NCBI GenBank assembly: GCA_015233195.1 | Contig: JADFYE010000004.1 | Span: 66,411 to 130,410 of the forward strand | Origin: Candidatus Omnitrophota bacterium | Lineage (GTDB): Bacteria > Omnitrophota > Gorgyraeia > Zapsychrales > Zapsychraceae | Direction of reading: 5' to 3' | Length of the DNA stretch: 64,000 nt | In this document: piece after piece, positions 47,475-60,735 of the stretch | How positions within the stretch are numbered: the first letter of the stretch is position 1 | How the letters are laid out: each line of letters begins with the position of its first letter | The notes under the pieces: model-generated | Told to the model about the DNA's origin: nothing | Database searches by the model: none | Seen by the model: the letters and a program-made list of their open reading frames with translations, nothing else | Program-made: the position numbers and the translations under genes

Positions 47475-48692
47475 ATGAATAAACTTACAGTAAAAGACTT
47501 GAATTTAAAGGGAAAAAAAGTTATTGTCCGCTGCGATTTTAATGTGCCGTTGGACGAAAAATTGAACATTACTGATGATCGCCGGATTACGGAGTCATTA
47601 CCTACCATAAAATTTATTCTTGAACAAAAACCTGCTAAATTAATTTTGATGAGCCATTTAGGTCGTCCAGAAGGACAGGTTGTTCCTGAAATGAGCTTGA
47701 AACCTGTTGCTGCACGTTTGGAAAAATTATTAAATCAAAAAGTTCTTATGCTTGATGACTGCGTGGGTGATAAGGTTAAATCCGCGATAGGTGCCAGCAA
47801 GGAAACGGTTGTTCTTCTTGAAAATCTTCGTTTTTATAAAGCAGAGACCAAGAATGATCCTGAATTTTCAAAGAAATTAGCTGATCTGGCAGATGTTTAT
47901 GTTAATGATGCTTTTGGTACAGCTCACCGCGCTCATGCTTCAACTGAAGGGATTACTCATTATTTGAAATCTGCAGCAGGATTCTTACTTGAAAAAGAAA
48001 TTAAATATTTAGGGTTGGCAGTTGAGAATCCGGTTCGTCCGTTCGTAGTTATTTTGGGCGGGAAAAAAGTTTCGGATAAAATTATGCTGATTGAAAATTT
48101 ATTGAGCAAAGCCAATAAGATAATTGTAGGCGGTGGTATGGCATACACTTTTTTGAAAGCGCAAGGTGTGAGTATTGGAAAATCAATTTGTGAAAATGAT
48201 AAGTTGGATTTAGCTAAAGGGTTGTTGGAAAAAGCTAAAGCAGCTGGAGTTGAGATTGTATTAAGTGAAGATTATCTGGTTGTGCAGGATTTTGGCAAAC
48301 CTGAAACTAAAAAATATGTTGCGGGAAATATCGACGCTGATTGGGAAGCTATAGATATCGGACCTAAGACTATTGAAAAATTTAAAAAAGTTATTATGTC
48401 AGCTAAGACTATTGTTTGGAATGGTCCAATGGGCGTATTTGAAAATGATGCTTATGCTGGCGGCACCAAGGCGATTGCTGAATGTTTAGCTGGATTAAAA
48501 GGCGTTTCTACTATTATAGGCGGTGGTGATTCAGCTGCAGCAGTTGCTAAGTTTGGTTTAGAAGATAAAATGACTCACATTTCAACTGGCGGCGGCGCAT
48601 CTTTGGAATATTTGGAAGGGCAAGTTTTGCCGGGTATTGCAGCGTTAACTGAAAAATCAAGCGGATGTGGTTGTGGATGCTCATGTTCGTAA
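47475..48692 (+). CDS. pgk: Phosphoglycerate kinase with an unusual Cys-rich C-terminal tail
   Basis: VIVRCDFNVP, MSHLGRP and ISTGGGASLEYLEG. ATG 47475 lies 5 nt after AAGGTGG. The protein ends ...ALTEKSSGCGCGCSCS. Confidence 0.95.
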   Translation: MNKLTVKDLNLKGKKVIVRCDFNVPLDEKLNITDDRRITESLPTIKFILEQKPAKLILMSHLGRPEGQVVPEMSLKPVAARLEKLLNQKVLMLDDCVGDKVKSAIGASKETVVLLENLRFYKAETKNDPEFSKKLADLADVYVNDAFGTAHRAHASTEGITHYLKSAAGFLLEKEIKYLGLAVENPVRPFVVILGGKKVSDKIMLIENLLSKANKIIVGGGMAYTFLKAQGVSIGKSICENDKLDLAKGLLEKAKAAGVEIVLSEDYLVVQDFGKPETKKYVAGNIDADWEAIDIGPKTIEKFKKVIMSAKTIVWNGPMGVFENDAYAGGTKAIAECLAGLKGVSTIIGGGDSAAAVAKFGLEDKMTHISTGGGASLEYLEGQVLPGIAALTEKSSGCGCGCSCS

Positions 48693-48764
48693 GCAAATTT
48701 TTTAAGTTAAAATCGCAGGTATTTAAGCGGACGTAGATAATTCGAGCGGGCACGGCTCGTACAG
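48693..48764 (+). repeat. Truncated copy (left arm only) of the intercistronic foldback repeat family, copy A
   Basis: GCAAATTTT...GCAGGTATTTAAGCGGACGTAGATAATTCGAGCGGGCACGG is nearly identical to the left halves of copies C and D. Similarity stops inside the apical hairpin region. It starts on the base right after the pgk stop codon. Confidence 0.8.
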
Positions 48765-51712: not shown

Positions 51713-52678
51713 ATGACCAAATATATTTTAAAACGTATTTTGATCGCGATACCTTTGTTGCTCGTGATGTCTATGCTGACATTTTTGCTCATGCATATGA
51801 CACCTGGCAATTTTTTTGATTCGCTCCGTCTTGACCCGCAAATATCCAAAGATACTATTGCCCGGTATGAACAATTATATAAATTAGACAAGCCTTGGTG
51901 GTACCAGTATGGGTATTGGCTAAAAAATATCGGACAGCTGCAATTCGGGTATTCGTTTTTTTACAATATTCCAGTAACCCAAGTTTTAGCGCCTCGTCTT
52001 TGGAATACTTTTATTTTGGCTTTTTCAAGTCTGTTGTTGACGTGGCTGGTAGCCATACCTTTAGGTATATGGGCTGCAGTTAACCGTGGTAAATGGGTCG
52101 ATAAAACTTTATCATTCTTATCTTTTTGCGGATTATCTATTCCAAGTTTCTTTTTGGCTTTACTGCTGTTGTATGTTGTTAGCATTATCGGCGGATTGCC
52201 TTTGGGTGGGATGCATAGCGCGTCGTATGATCTTATGCCGTGGTGGGGGAAGTTTTTTGATTTACTTAGGCATTTAATAATCCCAACGCTGGTAATTTCA
52301 GTAGGGTCTTTAGCTGCAATACAAAGGATCATGCGTGGGAATTTTCTTGAGGTTATGCGGCAGCAATATATTTTGACAGCAAGGGCAAAAGGTCTTCCAG
52401 AGACGAGAGTGTTGTATGTTCATGCTTTACGTAATGCTATAAATCCTTTGATAACATTGTTTGGTTATGAATTGTCGGGCTTGTTAAGCGGCGCGGCTTT
52501 GACTGAGATTATTTGTAATTGGCCGGGTTTAGGGTCATTGATGTTGACTGCGGTACGGTCGAAAGATATTTATTTGGTTATGGCGAGTATGTTGATGGGC
52601 GGGGTTTTGTTAGTATTAGGGAATTTGGTAGCGGATATTTTGTTGGCGTGGTCGGATCCGAGAATTAGGATTAAATAG
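51713..52678 (+). CDS. ABC transporter permease (OppB/DppB-like)
   Basis: MTKYILKRILIAIPLLLVMSMLTFLLMH N-terminus. EAA-loop region YILTARAKGLPETRVLYVHALRNA. The 51659 extension is unlikely. Confidence 0.9.
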   Translation: MTKYILKRILIAIPLLLVMSMLTFLLMHMTPGNFFDSLRLDPQISKDTIARYEQLYKLDKPWWYQYGYWLKNIGQLQFGYSFFYNIPVTQVLAPRLWNTFILAFSSLLLTWLVAIPLGIWAAVNRGKWVDKTLSFLSFCGLSIPSFFLALLLLYVVSIIGGLPLGGMHSASYDLMPWWGKFFDLLRHLIIPTLVISVGSLAAIQRIMRGNFLEVMRQQYILTARAKGLPETRVLYVHALRNAINPLITLFGYELSGLLSGAALTEIICNWPGLGSLMLTAVRSKDIYLVMASMLMGGVLLVLGNLVADILLAWSDPRIRIK

Positions 52679-52840
52679 GTTGAAAAGTCTCCGGTATTAC
52701 GCGGAACGCTTGTTTAACCCGGCGTGTTAAACTACGCTCGGCGATAATTCTCGCTCTCATACGCTTTTCGCGTATGAACCGTGCCCGCTCGAATTATCAA
52801 CGTCCGTTTAAATACCAGTGACTTTTCAACTAAAGTTTTC
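52679..52840 (-). repeat. Intercistronic foldback repeat, copy B (inverted orientation relative to C and D)
   Basis: The reverse complement aligns along its whole length with copies C and D (GGTATTTAAACGGACGTTGATAATTCGAGCGGGCACGG ... GAGAGCGAGAATTATCGCCGAGCGTAGTTTAACACGCCGGGTTAAACAAGCGTTCCGCGTAATACCGG). Its termini are degenerate. It begins right after the oppB-like stop codon. Confidence 0.85.
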
Positions 52841-52925
52841 TCCTCTCCGACCTTTGGGGAGAGGGCAGGGGCCGTTCGCGGGAGCTCCCGGCACGCCCTC
52901 GGGACATTACGTCCTCGGTTGTGAG
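52841..52925. other. GC-rich, strongly self-complementary 85-bp insert of unknown nature
   Basis: By my count 58 of 85 bases are G or C, in an otherwise AT-rich genome. Contains CCTCTCC...GGAGAGG, CCGTTCGCGG and the 12-nt perfect palindrome CGGGAGCTCCCG. Lies between repeat copy B and the oppC-like start. Confidence 0.5.
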
Positions 52926-54791: not shown

Positions 54792-54819
54792 ATTGAGGTA
54801 AGAGATAGAGAGGTAAAAA

Positions 54820-54987
54820 GCAAATTTTAAAAGTGAAAAGCGAAGGTATTTAAGCGGACGTAGATAATTAGAGCGGGCACGGATCCACGCGAAAGCGTGG
54901 AGAGCGAGAATTATCTTCGAGCGTAGTTTAATACGCCGGATTAAACAAGCGTTCCGCGTAATGCCGAAGATTTTCATAAAAATTTGC
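54820..54987 (+). repeat. Intercistronic foldback repeat, copy C (full length)
   Basis: Terminal inverted repeats GCAAATTTT (54820) and AAAAATTTGC (54978-54987). Inner arms GGTATTTAAGCGGACG / CGTTCCGCGTAATGCC and GATAATT.. / GAATTATC. Apical hairpin TCCACGC-GAAA-GCGTGGA at 54884-54901. Confidence 0.85.
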
Positions 54988-55001
54988 TTAACATACGTAT
55001 T

Positions 55002-55766
55002 ATGACGCCTATTTTAGAATTAAATAATGTTAAAAAATATTTCGGCTCAGTCAAAGCTGTTGACGGGGTGGATCTGTCTATTGTGCCAGGCGAAAGTTTG
55101 AGTATTGTCGGTGAATCCGGATGCGGTAAGACTACTTTAGTCCGTATGATGATCGGACTTTATGCTTGTGATAAAGGCTCAATAATTTTTTACGGTAACA
55201 ATATAACTTCTGCTGACCGATCAGCGCGTCAGTATTTAAAATCTATGCAAATGGTTTTCCAGGACCCATTCAGCAGCTTAGATCCTCGTTATACTATTCG
55301 CCGGGTTTTATATGAACCTATGAGCTTAAAGCCGGAGATGTTTCGATCTGCGTCTGAAAAAGATTTGCGAGTAAAACAATTATTAAAAGCGGTTGGTTTA
55401 TCAAACGACATGTTGGATCGCTATCCGCACGAATTCAGCGGGGGAGAAAGACAACGTATTGCTATAGCCAGGGCTTTGGTAGTTAATCCAAAGATGCTTA
55501 TTTTAGATGAGGCTATTTCAGCTTTAGATGTTTTGATCCAAAAACAAATTTTGGATCTGTTAGTAGAGTTACGAAAACAATTTGCGCTTACTTATGTTTT
55601 TATTACGCATAATATGCGGGTTGCCCGAAAGATCAGCGATCGAATTGCAGTAATGTATCAGGGAAAAATAGTTGAATTGGGTGAGACTGAGCAGGTTTTT
55701 AACGCGCCGAACCATATTTATACTAAACAGTTGATTGACTCTGCTATACAGTATAAGGTAAACTAA
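55002..55766 (+). CDS. ABC transporter ATP-binding protein (OppF/DppF-like)
   Basis: Walker A GESGCGKTT, signature FSGGERQR, Walker B LILDEAISALD. ATG 55002 lies 15 nt after the repeat end and has no obvious SD. Confidence 0.9.
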   Translation: MTPILELNNVKKYFGSVKAVDGVDLSIVPGESLSIVGESGCGKTTLVRMMIGLYACDKGSIIFYGNNITSADRSARQYLKSMQMVFQDPFSSLDPRYTIRRVLYEPMSLKPEMFRSASEKDLRVKQLLKAVGLSNDMLDRYPHEFSGGERQRIAIARALVVNPKMLILDEAISALDVLIQKQILDLLVELRKQFALTYVFITHNMRVARKISDRIAVMYQGKIVELGETEQVFNAPNHIYTKQLIDSAIQYKVN

Positions 55767-55798
55767 CCATCCGTAACCCCAGGGGTTACGGATGGTTT
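55767..55798 (+). terminator. Candidate intrinsic terminator or attenuator (near-perfect palindrome directly after the oppF-like stop)
   Basis: CCATCCGTAACCCC-A-GGGGTTACGGATGG gives a 14-bp GC-rich stem followed by TTT. The T-tract is short and the next gene starts only 15 nt later, so termination may be partial. Confidence 0.5.
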
Positions 55799-58037: not shown

Positions 58038-58913
58038 TTGAAAAAATTATTTATATTAACAATTTTGGCATTGTTTATTACCGGATCTGCGTTTGGCGAA
58101 TTTGTTAAGAAGCTAAATGTTATTACGACGATATTTCCGCTTTATGATATGGCTAGGGAGGTGGGAGGGGATAAAGTTGAAGTTACGAAATTGTTGCCTG
58201 CTGGAGTAGAAGCGCATACTTTTGATCCTAAAGCTAAAGATATTGTTAAGATAAATAATGGTGATGTTTTTGTTTATACGGGGGAATTTATGGAGCCGTG
58301 GGCGAAAGATATTTTTCGCGGCGTATCAAATTCGTCCTTGTTAATTGTAGACGCTAGTAAAGGTGTCACATTAATGAAAGGAAATGATCCACATATTTGG
58401 CTTGATCTTTCTTATGCTAAGATTATGACTGATAACATTGCAAAGGCTTTCGGTCAGAAGGATCCAGCGAATAAAGATTTTTATATGGCTAATGCTTCAG
58501 CATACAAAGCGCGTCTAGCTGATCTTGACCAGAGGTTTACTTCTGATTTAACTTCTTGTAAAATTAAAACAATTGTTTATGCCGGTCATTTTGCATTTGG
58601 TTATTTTGCTAAGCGTTATGGGTTAGCACAAGTTTCTCCGTATAAAGGTTTTTCTCCTGACGCTGAACCGTCGCCTAAAAGTGTAGCAGAACTAATTAAT
58701 ACTTTGAAAAGTTCAGGGTCAAAAGTTATTTATTATGAAGAATTGATAGACCCTAAAATCGCTCGTGTGATCTCGGAAGAAACCGGCGTAAAAATGGATT
58801 TATTAAATGGCGGGCATAATGTTTCGGATGATGAAATGAAGTCAGGGATAACGTTTTTGTCTATCATGGAAGAGAATTTGAAAAAATTAAGGCAAGGATT
58901 GCAATGTCAGTAA
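58038..58913 (+). CDS. znuA: Metal (zinc/manganese) ABC transporter substrate-binding protein, TroA/ZnuA family
   Basis: Signal peptide MKKLFILTILALFITGSAFG. Contains VITTIFPLYDM, GVEAHTFDP and DPHIWLD. TTG start 3 nt after the upstream stop. Confidence 0.8.
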   Translation: MKKLFILTILALFITGSAFGEFVKKLNVITTIFPLYDMAREVGGDKVEVTKLLPAGVEAHTFDPKAKDIVKINNGDVFVYTGEFMEPWAKDIFRGVSNSSLLIVDASKGVTLMKGNDPHIWLDLSYAKIMTDNIAKAFGQKDPANKDFYMANASAYKARLADLDQRFTSDLTSCKIKTIVYAGHFAFGYFAKRYGLAQVSPYKGFSPDAEPSPKSVAELINTLKSSGSKVIYYEELIDPKIARVISEETGVKMDLLNGGHNVSDDEMKSGITFLSIMEENLKKLRQGLQCQ

Positions 58914-59656
58914 GCGCGATCAAAGTTCAGGACTTAACAGTTTTTTATCAAAATTCAGAGGTTTTAAGCGGAGTTTCACTTGAAATTGCTTTGGGCGATT
59001 ATGTTGGTATCGTCGGACCAAATGGTTCGGGAAAAACTACATTGATAAAATCTATGGTCGGATTGATTGAGCCGGCACAGGGAAATATTGAGATATTAGG
59101 CACTGCGCTTGCTGCTTTTACTAAATGGTCAAGTGTTGGTTATCTGCCCCAGAAGAATAATGTAATGGATCCGCGTTTTCCGGCTAACGTATATGAGGTT
59201 ATAGCTTCAGGAATATTATCTGCAAAACGTTTTCCTAAGATTTTGAACAAACAGGATCAAATGCGAATTGAAAATACTTTGGAAATTTTGAATATTGTTG
59301 ATCTGCGAGATCATTTGATCGGCAGGCTTTCCGGCGGGCAGCAACAGCGGGTTATGTTAGCGCGCGCTTTAGTTAATCAGCCGTCAATTTTGCTTTTGGA
59401 TGAGCCGACAGTGGCTTTGGATCCGCATACGCGTGAAAGTTTTTATACGCTTTTGCAAAAACTTAATAAAGAACAGAACATTACAATTCTGTTAGTTTCA
59501 CATGATCCGGTTACTGTGGGCAATTTCGCGACCAAGTTGTTGTATTTAGATAAGAAAGTAATTTTTTATGGAAAATTTGGGGAATTTTGCAGTGCTAAAA
59601 ATATGAAAGATTATTTTGGTTTAGAAGCGCAGCATTTAATGTGTCATCAGCATTAA
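58904..59656 (+). CDS. znuC: Metal ABC transporter ATP-binding protein
   Basis: Walker A GPNGSGKTT, signature LSGGQQQR, Walker B LLLDEPTVALD. Confidence 0.85.
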   Translation: MSVSAIKVQDLTVFYQNSEVLSGVSLEIALGDYVGIVGPNGSGKTTLIKSMVGLIEPAQGNIEILGTALAAFTKWSSVGYLPQKNNVMDPRFPANVYEVIASGILSAKRFPKILNKQDQMRIENTLEILNIVDLRDHLIGRLSGGQQQRVMLARALVNQPSILLLDEPTVALDPHTRESFYTLLQKLNKEQNITILLVSHDPVTVGNFATKLLYLDKKVIFYGKFGEFCSAKNMKDYFGLEAQHLMCHQH

Positions 59657-59701
59657 CGTCAGAAGATAGACGATAGAAGTAAGAGGGTAAAAAAATAACA
59701 A

Positions 59702-59872
59702 GCAAATTTTTATATGGAAAATTGCAGGTATTTAAGCGAACGTTGATAATTCGAGCGGGCACGGTTCGTATGCTGTAAGCAGACGAGAGCGAGAATTATC
59801 GTCGAGCGCAGTTTAATACGCCGGATGAAACAAGCGTTTCGCGTAATGCCGAATATTTTCACAAAAATTTGC
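59702..59872 (+). repeat. Intercistronic foldback repeat, copy D (full length)
   Basis: Terminal inverted repeats GCAAATTTTT (59702) and AAAAATTTGC (59863-59872). Arms GGTATTTAAGCGAACG / CGTTTCGCGTAATGCC. Apical hairpin TCGTATGC-TGTAA-GCAGACGA at 59766-59786. Lies between the znuC-like and znuB-like genes. Confidence 0.85.
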
Positions 59873-59907
59873 GGACGAAAAATTTATATTATTAACTATG
59901 GGCGGAT

Positions 59908-60735
59908 ATGAATAGTTTCAGTAGTCAGATAATTGACGCGTTACATTATGCTTTTATCCAACGGGCAATATTAGCCGGGGTATTGATCGCTTTATGCTGT
60001 TCTTTTTTGGGAATTTTTCTGGTCTTAAGACGATTTTCACTTATTGGCGACGGTCTGGCTCATGTAAGTTTCGCTGCAATAGCTCTTGGACTTTTGCTTA
60101 AGCAATCGCCTTTATTGATTTCAGTACCAATCGTTGTGGTGGCTTCATTATTGATATTTCGCATGACTGAAAAGTCAGTTATGTATGGCGATGCTGCAAT
60201 CGGGCTTTTATCAGCAGTAGGTATTGCAGTAGGCGTGACTCTTGCCAGTATATCCGGCGGATTTAATGTTGATATTTTTAGCTATCTTTTTGGAAATATT
60301 TTATCAATCAGCAAAGAAGAAATTGTTTTGACTGTAATTTTGTCTGCAATCGTGATTTTCTCGGTTTTATTTTTTTATCACGACCTTTTTGCGGTAAGTT
60401 TTGATAATGATAACGCAAAGGTGATGGGGGTCAAGACTTCGAGAGTAAATTATGTGCTGCTGATGCTCACATCACTTACGGTTGTCTTAGGTATAAAGGT
60501 AGTTGGTACAATGTTAGTTTCAAGTTTGATCATATTCCCTGCAGTAAGTGCTTTACAGATCGCCCGAAATTTTAAAGCTGCAATTTTATTTGCATCAATA
60601 TTAGCGATTTTATCGGTGCTTATAGGCATAGCAGTTTCTTATGTATTTGACCTTCCGGCTGGAGCAACAATTGTTGAAGTAAATTTTACGTTTTTTGTTT
60701 TAGCATTTCTCGCCCGTAGATTATTTAAATTATGA
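59908..60735 (+). CDS. znuB: Metal ABC transporter permease (ZnuB/TroC family)
   Basis: 275-aa polytopic protein. Contains FIQRAILAGVLIALCCSFLGIFLVLRRFSLIGDGLAHVSF, typical of ABC-3 permeases. Confidence 0.85.
   Translation: MNSFSSQIIDALHYAFIQRAILAGVLIALCCSFLGIFLVLRRFSLIGDGLAHVSFAAIALGLLLKQSPLLISVPIVVVASLLIFRMTEKSVMYGDAAIGLLSAVGIAVGVTLASISGGFNVDIFSYLFGNILSISKEEIVLTVILSAIVIFSVLFFYHDLFAVSFDNDNAKVMGVKTSRVNYVLLMLTSLTVVLGIKVVGTMLVSSLIIFPAVSALQIARNFKAAILFASILAILSVLIGIAVSYVFDLPAGATIVEVNFTFFVLAFLARRLFKL

Follow-up and report, generated by a model that had tools for sequence, protein, structure and literature searches.

A probable mobile palindromic repeat family at operon junctions in Omnitrophota, with a fold apparently kept by compensatory changes

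The spacer between oppD and oppF in an uncultivated Omnitrophota MAG contains a hairpin that recurs, with a different stem sequence but with its pairing kept, in other spacers of the same 64-kb stretch of DNA (the whole stretch analysed, hereafter the window). This raises the question of whether the folded form, as RNA or as DNA, is under selection or whether the copies are merely decaying repeats. The initial annotation had argued for selection, on thin evidence of its own, which came down to the apical stem and little more than one arm pair in three copies. We find that the repeat adds a new family to the known small palindromic mobile repeats (ERIC, REPIN or MITE-like) and is not a new type of system.

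Repeat copies and their genomic setting

Repeat searches of the window revealed three full copies (B, C and D) of a repeat of ~175 nt and one left-half remnant (A); a fifth, full-length copy (E) was found in a second Omnitrophota MAG (Table 1). The interval first proposed for the structure, 54853-54958, covers only the inner part of the 172-nt copy C. For 20-22-mers of the family the chance expectation is 0 (0.00 in shuffles), so the family is real. Neither an nhmmer profile nor a covariance model found a copy beyond A-D in the 64-kb window. Copy E was the single match to the pattern GAGAGCGAGAATTATCNNCGAGCG in a search of GTDB species representatives; it is ~77-83% identical to the window copies (86-92% in the core), and a sampled housekeeping protein of its genome is at most 78% identical to the closest database relative. 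The pattern GATAATTNGAGCGGGCACGG had no matches in genome contigs or viral contigs and two in metagenome contigs, which cover the 20-mer only and look like chance. All six matches to GAGAGCGAGAATTATC in viral contigs were due to chance, one of two degenerate patterns gave a chance match in a coding region and the other none, and blastn against plasmids and phages found no match to the element. Subfamilies can be recognised among the copies: B and E share AATACC, TTTAAC and GGGTT in the right half, and A and E share a 19-nt left arm, CAAATTTTTTAAGTTAAAA.

Table 1 Coordinates of the repeat copies, of the structural elements of copy C and of related features. Positions are those of the window unless a contig handle is given; column pairs refer to the structural alignment of copies B, C, D and E.
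Feature	Position	Strand	Remarks
Copy A	48691-48762	+	Left half only; pgk/tpiA spacer; nhmmer E 2e-20; CM 12.5 bits
Copy B	52668-52841	-	Full length; oppB/oppC spacer; inverted relative to genes; CM 142 bits
Copy C	54818-54989	+	Full length, 172 nt; oppD/oppF spacer; CM 131 bits
Copy D	59700-59874	+	Full length; spacer between zinc-type ABC ATPase and ABC-3 permease; CM 138 bits
Copy E	L005:1727-1901		Full length; MAG nDJH6bin5 (GCA_015233115.1), contig JADFYJ010000024.1
Copy C P1	54820-54828/54979-54987	+	
Copy C P2	54833-54841/54969-54977	+	
Copy C P3	54845-54850/54960-54965	+	
Copy C P4	54854-54861/54949-54957	+	
Copy C P5	54862-54874/54904-54916	+	
Copy C apical hairpin	54884-54901	+	
Copy C side hairpin P6	54917-54925/54932-54939	+	
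Copy C 9-nt junction	54940-54948	+	
Asymmetric internal loop around variable apical stem	54873-54905	+	Invariant in window copies
6-8-mer run by copy C	54795-54817		GAGGTAAGAGATAGAGAGGTAAAA
6-8-mer run by copy D	59660-59699		
6-8-mer run by copy B	52841-52860		GGAGAGGAGAAAA; reverse complement
6-8-mer run by copy A	48662-48690		TGTGGTTGTGGATGC
6-8-mer run by copy E	L005:1697-1726		CAGAGAGTACCAGAGTACAGAGTA
127-nt family of L012	4996-5122, 6021-6147, 8881-9007, 15746-15872		Own apical hairpin; four copies in 21 kb
Further palindromic repeats	L012:10996-11116; L014:9850-9950; L017:17767-18077		
Open frame opposite element strand in B, C, D	52693-52816; 54845-54965; 59727-59850		...GITRNAC.IRR.KLRS.IILAL...RARSNYQR..KY
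Double change, columns	3/181		G-C to A-U in E
Double change, columns	20/167		G-C to U-A in E
Double change, columns	25/162		G-C vs U-A
Double change, columns	26/161		C-G vs U-A
Double change, columns	40/147		G-C to U-A in E
Double change, columns	43/144		G-C to A-U in D; 54857/54954 in C
Double change, columns	48/106		A-U vs U.G
Double changes, columns	72/89, 73/88, 75/86		Apical stem
Double change, columns	115/122		A-U to G-C in E; B has the A.C intermediate

The window has a GC content of ~36% and a GC skew of +0.18 to +0.33, with nearly all genes on the plus strand. Its copies are clustered within 12 kb, after a 47-kb polysaccharide cluster, and each separates two cistrons of a core operon. 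That cluster (1-47400, O-antigen-type) has almost no spacers and no repeat copy; it encodes glycosyltransferases, Wzy-like ligases, B12-radical-SAM enzymes, MBOAT and FkbH/FkbM-like proteins, and the GC content falls to 32-34% between 20 and 44 kb. The spacers that carry copies A, B and C measure 88, 266 and 210 nt, respectively, and copy D lies between ABC genes at 58904-59656 (ATPase) and 59908-60735 (permease). Copy B begins directly 3' of the oppB stop codon (TAG, 52676-52678). Copy A breaks off within the apical hairpin, and the tpiA ribosome-binding site and ATG (48781) come next; the copy has no fold of its own (z +0.99) and is a truly decayed half-copy.

Several features adjoin the copies. 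Copy A overlaps the PGK stop codon (TAA) with its first bases, and the encoded C-terminus (48659-48692) ends in an odd tail, SSGCGCGCSCS, where relatives have a conserved ...DKEKxxxR that overlaps tpiA; insertion of copy A seems to have remodelled the end of the gene. Beside copy B, a GC-rich stretch of ~85 nt (52840-52925) fills the rest of the oppB/oppC spacer. It has no Rfam match and folds no better than shuffles (z = -1.2), and may be a second, unrelated insertion. Directly 5' of every copy there is a degenerate, tandem-like run of 6-8-mers, mostly purine-rich and SD-like, and in L012 arrays of (GAGTAACN)n adjoin other repeats. The short spacer between oppF and the TPR gene contains a perfect palindrome with a 15-bp stem and a 3-nt loop (55765-55797, AACCATCCGTAACCCCTGGGGTTACGGATGGTT), which was terminator-like in the scan on the minus strand only.

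Three relatives (L003, L004 and L013; PGK ~75% identical) share the gene order pgk-tpiA-secG-oppABCDF-TPR. At pgk/tpiA, oppB/oppC and oppD/oppF their genes overlap or lie at most 40 nt apart, with no element; gene ends at these junctions were checked by alignment of N- and C-termini, and the comparisons are between genera, not strains. A fourth syntenic relative (L017) has an unrelated palindromic insert at oppD/oppF, and L014 has one at pgk/tpiA. Copy E likewise interrupts an operon; its neighbours, a radical-SAM haem gene on one side and an ahbA-like gene on the other, run in the same direction as the copy. Its site is unoccupied in L016, where the two genes overlap, and is taken by an unrelated palindrome in L012. 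Since at the same junctions the genes of relatives overlap or abut, or are separated by a different insert, the copies are lineage-specific insertions, and the different palindromes found there in other Omnitrophota make the junctions appear to be recurrent landing sites for such elements. Membership of the hairpin in a mobile insertion, shown by these copy-free junctions, was missed by the initial annotation. We infer mobility from the copy-free sites only, because no transposase, integrase or reverse transcriptase Pfam domain was detected among ~60 window ORFs tested.

Unrelated palindromic repeat families also occupy intercistronic spacers in other Omnitrophota (Table 1). The nDJH6bin5 bin (L005 and L012; GCA_015233115.1) contains two versions of the haem operon with 78% protein identity, so it probably mixes two organisms. 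Genes with Magnetochrome (MCR) domains lie beside the haem operon in L012 (1-3524) and L016 (1-3235) and point to magnetotactic Omnitrophota.

Predicted fold and pattern of change

Copies B, C, D and E were folded separately and gave the same rod architecture with a three-way junction. The rod starts with the outer helices P1 (GCAAATTTT/AAAATTTGC) and P2 (GAAAA.../...TTTTC) and continues through P3 (GGTATT/AATRCC, six pairs), P4 (GCGGA-CG/CG-T-TCCGC, with a bulged T) and P5 (GATAATT.../...AATTATC plus GC/GC). Beyond P5 comes an asymmetric internal loop, with GGGCACGGN on the 5' side and GA on the 3' side, and then the apical hairpin. A side hairpin, P6 (CGAGCGTA-GTTTAA-TACGCCGG), makes the three-way junction together with a 9-nt junction strand. 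Copy B differs in that its outermost helix P1 is degenerate, and its P2 is a perfect 11-bp stem (GTTGAAAAGTC/GACTTTTCAAC). All window copies agree exactly in the internal-loop flanks GAGCGGGCACGG (54871-54882) and GAGAGCGAG (54900-54908) and in GAGAGCGAGAATTATC; copy E has a single C>T change in the internal-loop flanks.

The apical hairpins described in the initial annotation were located as claimed in copy C (TCCACGC-GAAA-GCGTGGA) and copy D (TCGTATGC-TGTAA-GCAGACGA, 59766-59786, one A.G mismatch); that of copy B exists as well, although at 52757-52777 on the minus strand, one base off the proposed 52758-52778. Of these three loops, two of which had been called GNRA-like, only the GAAA tetraloop of C is truly GNRA; B has the pentaloop GAAAA, and copy E has GAA. 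The apical stem of copy C is one base pair shorter, lost symmetrically.

As RNA, the element strand has a minimum free energy of -58.6 kcal/mol in copy C (z -6.35 against shuffled controls), -49.2 kcal/mol in D (z -2.5), -65.0 kcal/mol in B (z -5.5) and -68.4 kcal/mol in E (z -7.2). The complement folds 6-15 kcal/mol worse in all four full copies; for the inverted copy B, the window plus strand gives -57.6 kcal/mol (z -5.4). Folded as ssDNA, copy C gives -33.7 kcal/mol (z -5.5).

Covariation was counted in a hand-built structural alignment of the four full copies, in which gaps were written as N to preserve columns in MAFFT. Over 58 pairs, standard pairs make up 93.9% of cells, against 87.9±1.1% in shuffles (0/500), and the covariation score is 0.224 against 0.113±0.021. 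Double-sided changes are seen at 13 of the 58 pairs; shuffles give 5.0±1.6 (0/500 reach the observed count), and sliding the 3' partner by 1-3 columns gives 0-2. Two of the 13 (columns 4/180 and 8/176) fall in the degenerate P1 of copy B and are unreliable, which leaves 11 (Table 1). These counts come from only four full copies, with outer arms and apical stem aligned by hand to the structure, which favours the structure, and independent events are fewer than the cell counts suggest because the copies are paralogous and share subfamily ancestry. The core, being ungapped, leaves no freedom to the alignment; 97.0% of its cells are paired, which 1/500 shuffles matched, and four of its 33 pairs have double-sided changes (1.9±0.9 in shuffles, reached in 13/500; slid controls 0-1). 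The core-only test thus agrees with the full-structure covariation, more weakly.

Double-sided changes are found in every helix but one, the six-pair GGTATT/AATRCC stem, which alternates only between U.G and U-A. Among the double changes is the one on which the initial annotation had built its case: G54857 pairs with C54954 in copy C, and A59739 and T59839 are the homologous bases in copy D. Its reading of AATACC in copy B, against AATGCC in C and D, as repair of a wobble pair was correct as to the sequences; the T-A pair is shared with E, however, and is a subfamily trait rather than a repair specific to B. The claim that compensatory changes keep the pairing therefore holds, in a formal count and after addition of a copy from a second genome, and we regard constraint on the fold, with base pairing preserved by matching changes on both strands of the stems, as supported by the alignment.

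Substitutions are very unevenly spread. In the core (103 columns) 16.5% of columns are variable, and the unpaired ones are the most conserved (4/37 variable, against 13/66 paired). Variable columns rise to 55% in the apical hairpin (Fisher p = 4e-4 against the core) and to 71% in the outer arms (p = 1e-11), whose termini are the least conserved part. Conservation of the core, loops included, far exceeds that of the apical stem and outer arms. Uniform, neutral decay is therefore rejected, and the earlier statement that the copies are not merely decaying is borne out. On this pattern the core is constrained in sequence, and the apical stem and outer arms only to pair.

Comparison with known repeats and signals

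The closest likeness is to ERIC (IRU) elements, which are also imperfect palindromes (~127-175 bp across the two families) in transcribed intergenic regions of operons, found in either orientation, with short terminal inverted repeats and a long, co-transcribed stem-loop. The central region of ERIC is reportedly better conserved than its ends, the same pattern as in the present element. The two share no sequence similarity and come from different phyla; a side hairpin gives the Omnitrophota element a three-way junction, and no TA target duplication is visible. The effect of ERIC on mRNA stability is orientation-dependent, and bacterial repeats of 100-200 bp generally give long stem-loops in transcripts (PMC2229807).

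REPINs are likewise non-autonomous, hairpin-forming repeats, with a stem part that conserves length and pairing but not sequence, and compensatory changes are common in their hairpins (PMC3116915). They also lack an obvious target duplication and leave singlets or half remnants, of which copy A would be the counterpart here. In REPINs two conserved REP 16-mers bound a variable spacer; our element, in contrast, has a conserved centre and variable ends, and it is larger and not GC-rich; no gene for a RAYT or other Y1/HUH transposase is present in the 64-kb window. Membership of the REPIN/REP class was rejected on this reversed conservation and the lack of Y1/HUH in the window.

Correia/NEMIS, RUP, BOX and CIR elements resemble ours in size (100-200 bp), in being multi-copy and placed between genes, and in the stable structure of their transcripts, and have no sequence similarity to it. 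In CIR RNAs two arms are joined by a linker (PMC2229807), as is also seen here. Correia elements differ in their conserved 24-26-bp TIRs, TA duplication and IHF site, none of which was seen.

By size (~175 bp, under ~300 bp), copy number (four in the window and one in the other MAG) and lack of coding capacity the element resembles a MITE. It has terminal inverted repeats, GCAAATTTT(T)/(A)AAAATTTGC, of 9-11 bp in C, D and E and degenerate in B, and unoccupied sites at the L003, L004 and L013 junctions and, for E, in L016, between genera in each case. The least-conserved termini are atypical, the opposite of a classical TIR-dependent MITE, and inspection by eye found no consistent direct repeat (target-site duplication) flanking A-E. 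Membership of the MITE class in the strict sense is not established, given no target duplication and no known transposase.

Other identities were considered and rejected. Rfam 15 gave no match at the gathering score over the whole window, and those at E ≤ 10 around copies B and C are only chance. Integron attC sites are imperfect palindromes that bound cassettes near intI and conserve only their R and L boxes; here the flanks are syntenic core operons (pgk-tpiA, oppABCDF, znu) and not cassettes, the window has no integrase, and conservation is high at the element's centre. An intrinsic terminator is rejected because the scan placed no terminator-like site on any of the copies. For an internal promoter there is no acceptable -35/-10 spacing and no hit in the promoter scan, and the IHF consensus does not fit. 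A split Shine-Dalgarno, in which the rod juxtaposes an upstream GAGAGG and the downstream start, would have an effective spacing of ~19 nt or more in copy C. The GA-containing internal loop is not a canonical K-turn (bulge of 6-7 nt, position 69 variable). The outer arms do not derive from pre-existing hairpins of the target: they are homologous from copy to copy, and the corresponding junctions of relatives contain no hairpin. A frame opposite the element strand is open through B, C and D (Table 1). It has no consistent start codon, a search of 5.8 billion proteins found nothing homologous to it, and it is probably not a gene.

Selection on the fold: propagation, host function or mutation

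We think it probable that the copies are non-coding, non-autonomous mobile repeats of ~175 bp, inserted at the cistron junctions of operons, with fold and core under purifying selection. The element strand would fold into the outer helices P1 and P2, a conserved core (P3-P5) that ends in the fast-evolving apical hairpin, and the side hairpin P6. Copies would differ by compensatory changes since only element lineages that keep the fold leave descendants. Recognition of a single-stranded form by an enzyme has been proposed for REPIN/RAYT and IS200/IS605-type elements, and our best guess is that a trans-acting enzyme recognises the single-stranded form of the present repeat during mobilisation. 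Inside operons the element would be co-transcribed, placing an intercistronic RNA structure of -50 to -68 kcal/mol in the message that may behave like REP or ERIC RNA, blocking exonucleases or serving as an RNase processing site, and the inserted element would replace the ancestral translational coupling. On this reading, the fold is likely required for propagation of the element itself, and RNA consequences are likely, though secondary. Selection on the folded form, as the initial annotation proposed, is supported as a constraint on the fold, with the caveat that it may act on propagation of the element and not on the host.

The main rival is a role selected in the host: a beneficial cis-acting RNA module whose fold is selected in place at each locus, as mRNA stabiliser, RNase III/E processing site or insulator setting the relative expression of cistrons, with mobility only the route of arrival. 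We consider this unlikely. All five copies are inside operons, the sense-strand fold is very stable, ERIC provides a precedent (PMC2229807), and conserved unpaired nucleotides and the GAAA, GAAAA or GAA apical loop would suit an RNA-protein or tertiary contact. Four of the five are co-oriented with the genes, but this bias is not significant (binomial p ≈ 0.19), and copy B folds better on the non-transcribed strand (-65.0 against -57.6 kcal/mol). The single-sided A.C changes of B (40/147 and 115/122) become G.U on its transcribed strand, yet B has also kept two U.G pairs for which its transcript has A.C, so that it has two G.U and two A.C pairs whichever strand is read. Across the copies only three A.C cells occur on the element strand, and the excess of G.U over A.C amounts to five against three distinct positions, which cannot separate RNA from ssDNA. 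This strand asymmetry is also confounded by GC skew, as C>T and A>G changes on the plus strand alone yield G.T and not A.C on the transcribed strand. Furthermore, relatives have no element at these junctions and others have unrelated palindromes there, which looks like tolerated insertion sites rather than a required function, and no promoter- or terminator-like feature is tied to the element.

A bolder version would make the core itself, with its three-way junction, invariant GAGCGGGCACGG/GAGAGCGAG loop and 9-nt junction, an RNA module with a function in the polycistronic transcript, spread as a mobile element and perhaps serving as a protein-binding or self-processing insulator between cistrons. 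This we hold to be quite improbable; if true, the core would be a new Omnitrophota-specific class of structured RNA and not a passive selfish repeat.

Pairing could also be kept up at the DNA level without selection, by intrastrand template switching or gene conversion between the arms of a quasi-palindrome. Most compensated pairs are Watson-Crick on both strands, the most variable parts (palindrome centre and outer arms) are those where hairpin-templated repair is expected, and the truncation point of copy A coincides with the palindrome centre. However, G.U pairs on the element strand (G.T in DNA) have been inherited uncorrected, at 47/139 in all four copies, 107/129 in three, and 33/153 and 48/106 in two each, and this stable inheritance disfavours both a symmetric DNA cruciform and arm-to-arm templated correction; like the better folding of the element strand over its complement, it favours a strand-specific, single-stranded fold. 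The A-T to T.G compensation at 48/106 would not arise by templating, the element is no simple palindrome (33-nt side hairpin plus junction, bulged T in P4), and the high conservation of unpaired core nucleotides would be left unexplained, which makes this route very unlikely.

That the copies are plain decaying duplicates with covariation by small-sample chance is hardly credible: full copies number only four, copy A is a decayed remnant and the core-only excess is modest, but no shuffle and no slid control reached the double-sided count of the full structure, apical-stem changes on the two arms hit the same pairs, substitution rates are strongly heterogeneous, and so similar a copy as E is found in a genome whose housekeeping protein is this far from its closest relative.

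Mobile repeats selected to keep their fold remain our preferred reading. A full-text literature search for Omnitrophota together with MITEs found no paper on repeat content. The repeat family, together with the unrelated insertions at the same junctions, suggests that the intercistronic junctions of compact operons are recurrent landing sites in Omnitrophota. Such elements make gene callers mis-set gene ends, and their conserved core and variable, paired periphery lend themselves to a compact covariance model (R1) that is usable on full assemblies. By breaking ancestral translational coupling and putting very stable structures inside mRNAs, they may shape the expression of operons.
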